A DNA stretch of 64,000 bases from Escherichia coli (lineage in GTDB: Bacteria > Pseudomonadota > Gammaproteobacteria > Enterobacterales > Enterobacteriaceae), in the NCBI RefSeq assembly GCF_041248615.1, contig NZ_CP158426.1, one strand, 5' to 3'. Numbering within the stretch: the first letter of the stretch is position 1; every line of letters begins with the position of its first letter. The position numbers were made by a program, and so were the translations under genes. The notes beneath the pieces were generated by a model. That model made no database searches, had not been told where the DNA came from, and saw nothing but the letters and a program-made list of their open reading frames with translations. Shown here piece after piece: positions 38,845 to 40,236 of the stretch.

Positions 38845-39759
38845 ATGGCTGGTTTAAGGAATAATAACAACACACAGAATGCACAGTGGGCTGATTATGT
38901 GGGTGACATTCTTCGGGGGGCTCAACCGATAAACCAGCTAGTACCTCAGCACCCTTATCTTAACGACGTCCCACTCATTGATGAATTAAGGCGTCAGAAC
39001 ACTCATCATGTTATTCTCTTGACACTTGATGTTGCAAAAAAAATACTCAGCTCAATAACATCATTTGATTACATTCATTTTATCACTACACATCCTTCAG
39101 GTATAAAAGATACACTCGCTTGGTTAGTTAACGCGGGTAAATTAATGACTGAGTTTGATGGAAATGGGAAAATTATATTTAACTTTAATACCTTAAAGTA
39201 TACAAAAGCAAGTTACTTTGAAATACTTGGAGAGAAATATATAAAAATTACAACATCCAGCCCCTGGCTTTTAGAAAAGCTCGGTAAATATATTTTCTCT
39301 TCACGAGCGCCTCAAGTTCTGGAACTCGCTATTGGCTGGCGAGGAGCTTTATCTGAATCAATAAAAGGAGTTAAGTTCTGTATCTGGTTTTCAGTAGCCT
39401 GGAGAACCATAGAATTTATTATGAGTTCAGAGCGAGATCTGGTTAATTTTCTTGGTGATTTTTCAATGGATGTGGCCAAAGCAGTGATTGCAGGCGGTGT
39501 TGCAACTGCTATTGGAAGCCTGGCTTCTTTTGCCTGTCTTAGTTTTGGCCTTCCAGTAATTCTTGTAGGAGGAGCAATTTTACTTACAGGGATAGTGTGT
39601 ACAGTTGTTTTAAATGAAATCGATGCTCAATACCATTTATCAGAAAAATTAAAAGATGCAATTAGAGATGGACTAAAACGGCAACAGGAACTTGATAAAT
39701 GGAAAAGGGAAAACATGACTCCATTTATGTATGTTCTTAACACTCCCCCCGTGATATGA
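38845..39759 (+). CDS. candidate T6SS effector, putative membrane-active (glycine-zipper hydrophobic C-terminal region)
   Basis: ORF 38830..39759, ATG at 38845 with GGAGAG RBS; AT-rich; C-terminal hydrophobic stretch AKAVIAGGVATAIGSLASFACLSFGLPVILVGGAILLTGIVCTVVL; immediately downstream of hcp paralog. Function inferred from context only. Confidence 0.5.
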   Translation: MAGLRNNNNTQNAQWADYVGDILRGAQPINQLVPQHPYLNDVPLIDELRRQNTHHVILLTLDVAKKILSSITSFDYIHFITTHPSGIKDTLAWLVNAGKLMTEFDGNGKIIFNFNTLKYTKASYFEILGEKYIKITTSSPWLLEKLGKYIFSSRAPQVLELAIGWRGALSESIKGVKFCIWFSVAWRTIEFIMSSERDLVNFLGDFSMDVAKAVIAGGVATAIGSLASFACLSFGLPVILVGGAILLTGIVCTVVLNEIDAQYHLSEKLKDAIRDGLKRQQELDKWKRENMTPFMYVLNTPPVI

Positions 39760-39768
39760 GGATTAACT

Positions 39769-40236
39769 ATGCGTTTACATGTTAAATTGAATGAGTTTTT
39801 TTCGATGTTTTTTATAGCCATATTATTTTTCCCTGCATTCAATGCTTCTTTATTTTTTACCGGAATTAAACCTCTATATTCAATAATAAAAGGCTCCACG
39901 GAAATATTTTATGATTGGAGAATGTTGATTCTATGCTTCGGTTTCATATCGTTTTCCTTGTTAAATATTCATGTAATTTTACTAACAATAATAAAATCAT
40001 TCTTAATAAAAAAAACAAAGGTAATCAATTTCGCCACAGACATAACAATACAGCTAACTCTTATATTTTTACTAATAGCTATCGTAATAGCACCTTTAAT
40101 AGCTCCTTTTGTCACAGGATATGTCAATGCTAATTATCACCCCTGCGGTAATAACACGGGGATTTTCCCAGGAGCAATCTATATTAAAAATGGCATAAAA
40201 TGTAATAATGAACATACTTCTCGCAAGGAAGATTAA
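39769..40236 (+). CDS. ykfM: small polytopic inner-membrane protein, putative immunity protein
   Basis: 155-aa ORF with about 4 TM helices, 9 bp after the candidate effector; resembles the K-12 orphan ykfM by size, position near aspV and remembered sequence. Confidence 0.55.
   Translation: MRLHVKLNEFFSMFFIAILFFPAFNASLFFTGIKPLYSIIKGSTEIFYDWRMLILCFGFISFSLLNIHVILLTIIKSFLIKKTKVINFATDITIQLTLIFLLIAIVIAPLIAPFVTGYVNANYHPCGNNTGIFPGAIYIKNGIKCNNEHTSRKED

Follow-up and report, generated by a model that had tools for sequence, protein, structure and literature searches.

Type VI secretion system (T6SS) effectors belonging to the Tme family (type VI membrane-disrupting effectors) were defined by Fridman et al. 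2020 (Nat Commun 11:1085; PMC7046647) by a C-terminal domain, whose published motif consists of a near-invariant DxxK, a predicted transmembrane (TM) helix and a flanking Asp. The founding members, Tme1 and Tme2 of Vibrio parahaemolyticus, are secreted by the T6SS and are toxic when sent to the periplasm; they dissipate the membrane potential in the manner of VasX or carbonyl cyanide m-chlorophenyl hydrazone (CCCP) and admit propidium iodide without lysis (PMC7046647). In both the depolarization and the propidium iodide assay, VasX gave the same behavior as the two Tme proteins (PMC7046647). They are neutralized only by their cognate Tmi proteins, a specificity shown for Tmi1 and Tmi2 (PMC7046647), and DUF1240 and DUF1240-like proteins make up this cognate immunity family (Fridman et al. 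2020, PMC7046647). Here, we describe a two-gene module at positions 38845–40236 of a 64,000-nucleotide stretch of Escherichia coli DNA (the window), which encodes a 304-residue protein and the membrane protein YkfM. We consider it very probable that this module is the effector–immunity pair of a cassette hcp2A-tme-tmi at the aspV-proximal end of the T6SS-2 island, in which tme is the full-length form of the gene known as yafU in K-12 and tmi is ykfM. The module contains the following features.

38845–39759, plus strand: tme (full-length form of K-12 'yafU'), encoding 304 residues (34.0 kDa; WP_000908071.1, 'hypothetical protein' in RefSeq), a predicted Tme-family T6SS membrane-disrupting effector
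38845–39207, plus strand: N-terminal region of the effector, residues 1–121, outside the Tme domain; from the alignment of close relatives, and mixed alpha/beta in the AlphaFold2 (AF2) model
39208–39675, plus strand: Tme domain, residues 122–277, from the published RPS-BLAST match
39469–39480, plus strand: DxxK motif, D209-V-A-K212, where the first hydrophobic helix begins, from conservation and agreement with the published Tme motif
39481–39618, plus strand: hydrophobic helical hairpin, residues 213–258, with an FGLP turn, from hydropathy, motif scan and AF2
39622–39624, plus strand: D260, where the second hydrophobic helix ends, from conservation; the flanking Asp of the published motif
39769–40236, plus strand: ykfM, a putative Tmi-type (DUF1240-like) immunity gene encoding 155 residues with three TM helices; RefSeq name and homology

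Membership of the 304-residue protein in the experimentally founded Tme family is supported by sequence comparison. The protein itself is catalogued in Supplementary Data 5 of PMC7046647 under WP_000908071.1, with a Tme domain at residues 122–277 (E=1.3e-37); the published criterion is homology to Tme1 residues 161–310, by position-specific scoring matrix and RPS-BLAST, at E≤1e-8 over at least 80 residues (PMC7046647). The same entry gives a 160-residue Hcp 43 bp upstream and a 155-residue protein 9 bp downstream (PMC7046647). The first-pass annotation of this DNA had recognized no family for the protein and had presented the module as uncharacterized. The first statement holds for Pfam and NCBIfam, scans of which returned no match for the effector, YkfM or the neighboring lipoprotein YafT; those libraries contain no Tme. 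It fails for the literature, in which the family has been described since 2020 with this protein in its catalogue, and the description as uncharacterized has to be withdrawn. The absence of any Pfam or NCBIfam match and of an enzymatic domain, together with TM segments in both proteins, would also suit an ordinary non-toxic inner-membrane pair that just happens to lie beside hcp, for instance with an accessory role in the T6SS or a housekeeping one; names such as 'inner membrane protein YafU' would then be a full description. We regard this explanation as extremely unlikely, in the first place because the profile match is to a family whose founders are proven toxins.

The DxxK–hydrophobic hairpin–Asp arrangement of the Tme motif is present in the 304-residue protein. 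D209, K212 and D260 are invariant among close relatives (alignment A1), and in 128 distant representatives (≤50% identity) they are retained in 118, 125 and 126 sequences, respectively. The hairpin at residues 213–258 reaches a 19-residue Kyte-Doolittle maximum of 2.71, its two helices are parted by FGLP, and it contains small-xxx-small repeats at residues 216–228. At positions 216, 220, 224 and 228, which form a glycine-zipper-like face, the residue in the same 128 sequences is nearly always one of Ala, Gly, Ser and Thr. The C-terminal glycine-zipper hydrophobic hairpin noticed in the first reading is thus genuine, and it is no chance feature, since it is conserved across these 128 distant homologues.

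Homologues of the effector found by a word-indexed search were confined to 19 clusters, from E. coli/Shigella, Salmonella (63% identity), Rahnella (39%) and a few metagenomic sources. A profile of close relatives, compared with 1.84 billion representatives, matched 702 proteins at E≤1e-3, of which 347 reach E≤1e-10; the majority of the 702 align to effector residues ~120–280. In these matches, the Tme domain ends a median of 30 residues before the C-terminus, and it is C-terminal in the long relatives. The latter include PAAR-domain proteins from Enterobacter, Pantoea, Pectobacterium and Vibrio, as well as a 'Zn-binding protein involved in type VI secretion', a LysM protein and proteins named after ImpA. 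The effector shares two further attributes of Tme proteins, namely a C-terminal domain whose relatives carry T6SS delivery domains and a genetic association with T6SS components; the fusion of relatives to PAAR and other delivery domains is also difficult to reconcile with a non-toxic pair. Relatives in the AlphaFold Database bear the name 'Inner membrane protein yafU'. Outside the Tme domain, the N-terminal residues ~12–45 (W-x-DY-x-GD-x-LRG-x-x-PINQL-x-PQHPY) are strongly conserved even at ~35% identity, and the N-terminal region (residues 1–121) may be a loading or delivery determinant.

The structure of the effector was modeled with AF2 from an alignment of 112 sequences, giving a mean predicted local distance difference test score (pLDDT) of 74; an earlier model built from 10 sequences (pLDDT 46) was discarded. 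Confidence is low to medium for the alpha/beta region at the N-terminus (pLDDT 47–77). The C-terminal part consists of helices at residues 165–193, 199–234, 238–263 and 265–290, with block-mean pLDDT of ~81–94 from residue 171. The hydrophobic hairpin is made up of the two middle helices; the last one has a strongly amphipathic, charged character. A sequence search of the PDB aligned the hairpin with the alpha-pore-forming toxin AhlB at E=0.9, which is insignificant and was rejected as evidence.

The downstream gene, described in the first pass as a 155-residue frame nine bp from the effector gene and possibly ykfM, is confirmed on both counts, its position by the list of open reading frames (ORFs) and the RefSeq annotation, its identity by RefSeq name and homology. 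The estimate of about four TM helices needs correction. Hydropathy gives three hydrophobic segments (residues ~10–33, 51–77 and 88–118), as does the published Phobius topology of the 155-residue form (i12-32o52-75i96-119o; PMC7046647). YkfM resembles Tmi proteins in that its gene lies directly 3' of the effector gene and in that its TM helices fall within the range of three to six predicted for them. Its positive-inside pattern predicts that the N-terminus faces in and the C-terminus out, so that a tail of ~35 residues with invariant cysteines at 126 and 145 would lie in the periplasm. The invariant positions of the YkfM family are Y123, C126, G131, Y138, K140 and C145.

The syntenic Salmonella protein, which has a PF06836 (DUF1240) match on record, shares 49% identity with YkfM (E=4e-47), and a homologue 68% identical to YkfM (P0177) carries PF06836 as well. 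Two further DUF1240 proteins align with YkfM at E=6e-8 and 5e-5, sharing a common tail, Y-x-x-C…G…Y-x-K…C, and three of the eight aligned family members match DUF1240 at E≤0.1. By transitive homology, YkfM can be classified as DUF1240-like. The membership of the two proteins in the Tme and DUF1240-like families would bear out what had been suspected from the bare sequence, that is, an effector aimed at membranes and a polytopic protein giving immunity to it.

The genomic context was decisive for the Tme/Tmi identification, since the DUF1240 neighbors in Salmonella and Rahnella led to the family of Fridman et al. 2020. We compared the effector neighborhood at seven loci from different taxa, E. 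coli included. A small gene lies directly 3' of the effector gene in all seven, and its product has a DUF1240 match on record in five; the remaining two are E. coli ykfM, homologous to DUF1240 proteins, and locus L012. An hcp gene adjoins the effector gene at five of the seven loci, among them orphan islands in Rahnella and in one further genome. The Rahnella bruchi island, set among metabolic genes, consists of the effector gene, a DUF1240 gene and an hcp in convergent orientation. This shared travel of effector, small membrane gene and hcp in other genera would not be expected of a non-toxic pair that happened to lie beside hcp.

The Salmonella T6SS cluster ends with hcp, a 307-residue homologue of the effector and a 149-residue protein with a Pfam DUF1240 match. 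Next come a second effector copy, which has diverged and carries a frameshift, and a second DUF1240 gene, with yafT and dnaQ after them. The second pair occupies positions 9586–11010 of locus L004 (Salmonella enterica contig DALPDZ010000034.1); over the N-terminal ~45 residues the two effector copies barely differ, against ~35% identity in the remainder. Judged by its sequences, this tandem pattern is that of a polymorphic toxin array. Diverged tandem copies are expected of a polymorphic toxin locus and are a further argument against the non-toxic pair.

The hcp gene that precedes the effector gene in the window is as follows.

38319–38801, plus strand: terminal hcp, of Hcp2A type, which closes the main T6SS-2 cluster and is a pseudogene in the window strain; TIGR03344 match at residues 1–96, 'internal stop' in RefSeq

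The effector-linked Hcps from the five loci are 47–74% identical to each other and 28–32% identical to the other Hcp of the window. Because the linked Hcps are closer to each other than to that other Hcp, the three genes act like a cassette that has an Hcp subtype of its own, which corresponds to Hcp2A (type IIa) of Ma et al. 2018. The product of the terminal hcp is the presumed cognate carrier of the effector. The AT-richness of the two-gene module, noted at first reading, is substantiated by a GC content of 0.379 for the effector gene and 0.297 for ykfM, with 0.389 for the terminal hcp, compared with 0.56–0.57 in the T6SS core (tssM 0.567, vasL 0.561). This composition fits the repression of hcp2A by H-NS and its induction by serum (Ma et al. 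2018). The T6SS-2 of avian pathogenic E. coli (APEC) has activity in interbacterial competition and killing. XmtU/XmtV, the only assigned T6SS-2 effector pair, was considered as the known pair of this locus and ruled out, as it belongs to the other operon, hcp2B-vgrG2.

The adjacent hcp was a second element of the original proposal, which is correct as to position; in the window strain, however, the gene is interrupted by a premature TAG at codon 99 (38613–38615). The stop results from a single C→T change at 38613 relative to Ec-U14-1, the closest genome (99.8% identical), and the 31-mer spanning the stop allele occurs in one of 5426 complete E. coli genomes, namely this one. It is possibly a very recent inactivation, or else a sequencing error. 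The annotated pseudogene with a stop unique to this genome, and the decay of the locus to an immunity-only state in K-12 and other lineages, could be taken to mean that the module is an evolutionary relic in the window strain, where only immunity matters, if anything. We find this unlikely, given that the stop is a single recent substitution or error, that tme is 100% identical to that of Ec-U14-1, whose hcp is intact, and that the other Hcp (17658–18176) and the remaining T6SS-2 appear intact.

On the reading as a Tme-type effector with its Tmi-type immunity protein, the 34-kDa effector, which has no signal peptide, would be made in the cytoplasm and loaded on the T6SS tube, most likely via the Hcp encoded 43 bp upstream, and then fired into the periplasm of a neighboring Gram-negative cell, such as a rival member of the Enterobacteria. 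There, the C-terminal Tme hairpin (residues 213–258), bracketed by D209xxK212 and D260 and accompanied by amphipathic flanking helices, is predicted to enter the inner membrane from the periplasm. Because the ends of a hairpin share one side of the membrane, D209, K212 and D260 would cluster at the periplasmic interface. By analogy with Tme1 and Tme2, insertion would render the membrane leaky, leading to collapse of the potential and a stop of growth without lysis. YkfM, a three-TM inner-membrane protein with a cysteine-bearing tail, is expected to neutralize its cognate effector in the membrane and so guard the producer and its kin. In the window strain, the hcp stop may impair effector delivery while immunity would be retained. 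In K-12, the island was deleted, leaving the effector stump 'yafU' and an orphan immunity gene, ykfM.

The K-12 arrangement is directly visible. In a K-12 derivative (locus L002, 4001–4846), the whole T6SS-2 island is missing and the last 357 nt of the effector gene abut an ISAs1 remnant, while ykfM and yafT are intact. Since only the 3' end of the effector gene and an intact ykfM remain, K-12 yafU (b0218) is a tme stump and ykfM (b4586) an orphan immunity gene, which supplies the functional context for K-12 ykfM that the first-pass annotation had anticipated. K-12 YkfM (cluster P0168; 159 residues, 91% identical) is the orthologue of the window protein, and its accession, WP_001236645.1, is listed as the downstream protein of other strains in Supplementary Data 5 (PMC7046647). 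The retention of ykfM in K-12 without a T6SS is a point in favor of a non-toxic pair. K-12 ykfM has been listed as 'essential' only by TraDIS (transposon-directed insertion-site sequencing; PMC5821084). We considered whether a toxic yafU stump makes ykfM essential and rejected this, as a viable ykfM::Tn5 mutant exists (PMC2824699), which also rules out an addiction-type dependence on ykfM. The lack of TraDIS insertions is probably due to an AT-rich (29.7% GC), H-NS-bound target rather than to essentiality.

Among the 5426 complete E. coli genomes, with presence defined as at least 80% of the gene, tme was found in 2561 and ykfM in 2997. About 47% of the genomes have the full pair, ~8% more have immunity alone (~436 genomes, a number inflated by K-12 strains), and ~45% have neither gene. 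Absence of both genes from nearly half of the species means that they are not housekeeping genes, again contrary to the non-toxic explanation. Two matching places were seen on plasmids for each of tme and ykfM, among ~3000 chromosomal ones.

A different target has also to be considered. Links to interactions with host cells and to virulence have been described for T6SS-2 and its two Hcps, serum induces the cluster, and any bilayer might in principle be a target of a hairpin that inserts into membranes, so that the effector might mainly attack eukaryotic host membranes and thereby explain the roles of T6SS-2 and Hcp in endothelial invasion and in the virulence of neonatal meningitis-associated E. 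coli (NMEC) and APEC. This seems very unlikely to us: the tightly coupled immunity gene is conserved, even as an orphan in the ~436 genomes above, which indicates selection by bacterial attack; Tme1 and Tme2 are antibacterial; and our literature search found no link of this effector to host phenotypes.

Several observations weigh against the identification of the module as a Tme/Tmi pair. At two of the seven loci hcp is not adjacent, so that the linkage to Hcp is not universal, and the hcp adjoining the effector gene is broken in this strain. An effector of 34 kDa is large for a cargo of the Hcp lumen. The AF2 model resembles no solved structure, leaving the proposed pore or insertion mechanism without structural precedent. 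YkfM itself has no Pfam DUF1240 (PF06836) match even at E≤10. The connection of the effector to Tme1 rests on the table of Fridman et al. 2020 and on the motif, and Tme1 itself was not encountered among the family-profile matches checked by cluster name. The sole phenotype reported for K-12 ykfM is a modest stress lethality unrelated to T6SS, in that a ykfM::Tn5 mutant is killed modestly more by nalidixic acid, mitomycin C and peroxide (PMC2824699), a phenotype that a non-toxic pair would accommodate. The literature on ykfM does not mention T6SS, and a search of the literature found no experiment on the E. coli Tme/YkfM pair; we infer its toxicity, target compartment, immunity and dependence on Hcp2A from homology. 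The same search found neither an explicit equation of yafU/ykfM with Tme/Tmi, which is implicit in the supplementary table of 2020, nor a description of Hcp2A as the dedicated carrier of Tme.

The annotation of the surrounding region was taken from RefSeq record NZ_LT599825.1 (E. coli NRZ14408 chromosome), which is 100% identical to the window, and from the ORF list. The region is the aspV-tRNA end of a complete E. coli T6SS-2 island. On one flank, the minus strand carries an Rhs element, vgrG and hcp; on the other side, the plus strand runs from tssB to tssM and vasL and then to the second hcp. This hcp is followed by the effector gene, which is the last but one of the complete T6SS-2 cluster, ykfM, the convergent lipoprotein gene yafT, tRNA-Asp and dnaQ. 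The gap from the hcp stop to the effector gene is 43 bp, and that from the effector gene to ykfM is 9 bp (39760–39768). Promoter and terminator scans performed no better than on shuffled sequence, save for one plausible hairpin 3' of ykfM.

40349–40374, plus strand: GC-rich terminator-like hairpin in the convergent ykfM/yafT gap, from a hairpin scan in which such sites are regionally as frequent as expected from shuffled sequence

On weak evidence, this hairpin is probably the end of an hcp-tme-tmi transcript.

The yafT gene (40385–41170, minus strand) is convergent to ykfM, its Salmonella orthologue matches Pfam PF25851, and its product is called 'aminopeptidase' in some RefSeq records. It is kept beside aspV even in genomes without ykfM and the island, such as O157:H7, and because of this retention it seems independent of the toxin module. 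In Ec-U14-1, an inserted IS200C transposase gene (locus L009, 3750–4208), which the window lacks, separates yafT from tRNA-Asp. At the opposite flank of the island, the Rhs core protein (10732–15231) has a small ORF downstream (10355–10732) that is likely its immunity gene; this separate effector locus sits behind vgrG (15307–17448) and the other hcp (17658–18176), all on the minus strand. ISAs1 and transposase remnants are found at ~8672–10134 of the window. A 74-residue hypothetical ORF (WP_000718848.1; 19408–19632, plus strand) lies between tssB and tssC.

If the Tme/Tmi assignment is correct, two K-12 'y-genes' gain a concrete, testable function, yafU as a toxin stump and ykfM as orphan immunity. 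It also points to a likely cargo of Hcp2A, to which none has been assigned so far, in the T6SS-2 of extraintestinal pathogenic E. coli (ExPEC), APEC and NMEC, a system studied mainly for virulence. The pair may shape competition between strains in the gut. More tentatively, though it seems to us quite possible, hcp2A-tme-tmi would be a mobile cassette in which Hcp2A (type IIa) and the effector form a specific carrier/cargo pair, residues ~12–45 of the effector would be an Hcp-loading signal, and K-12 ykfM would be a working shield against T6SS-2 attack by about half of the species.

A publication of 2020 described the family, the mechanism and the immunity partner and catalogued this exact protein, so that the module is of an already known kind and of known membership; no new kind of system or mechanism is implied, and what is added here is incremental. 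The closest described systems are Tme1/Tmi1 and Tme2/Tmi2, with which the E. coli pair shares a C-terminal Tme domain with DxxK, TM helix and flanking Asp, the association with T6SS, the lack of a signal peptide, and a multi-TM, DUF1240-like immunity gene directly downstream. It differs in that the effector has another N-terminal region, and in that the immunity protein falls below the Pfam DUF1240 threshold. Unlike the Vibrio pairs, which are orphans, it lies inside a T6SS cluster after a dedicated Hcp, and it is known here from sequence. The K-12 yafU/ykfM locus has an orthologous ykfM and the last 357 nt of the same effector gene, differing by truncation at an ISAs1 remnant, so that only immunity can be functional there.

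More distant parallels are found among T6SS effectors of other families. Tse4/Tsi4 of Pseudomonas aeruginosa and Ssp6/Sip6 of Serratia marcescens are Hcp-associated systems whose glycine-zipper effectors form ion-selective pores. From the periplasm, Tse4 and Ssp6 depolarize the inner membrane, and small membrane proteins confer immunity to them. By description these effectors are analogues of the E. coli effector, not members of its family, and they are smaller proteins than the 304-residue effector. In VasX and colicin-type pore-forming domains, a hydrophobic helical hairpin sits on a soluble protein that enters the inner membrane from the periplasmic side.

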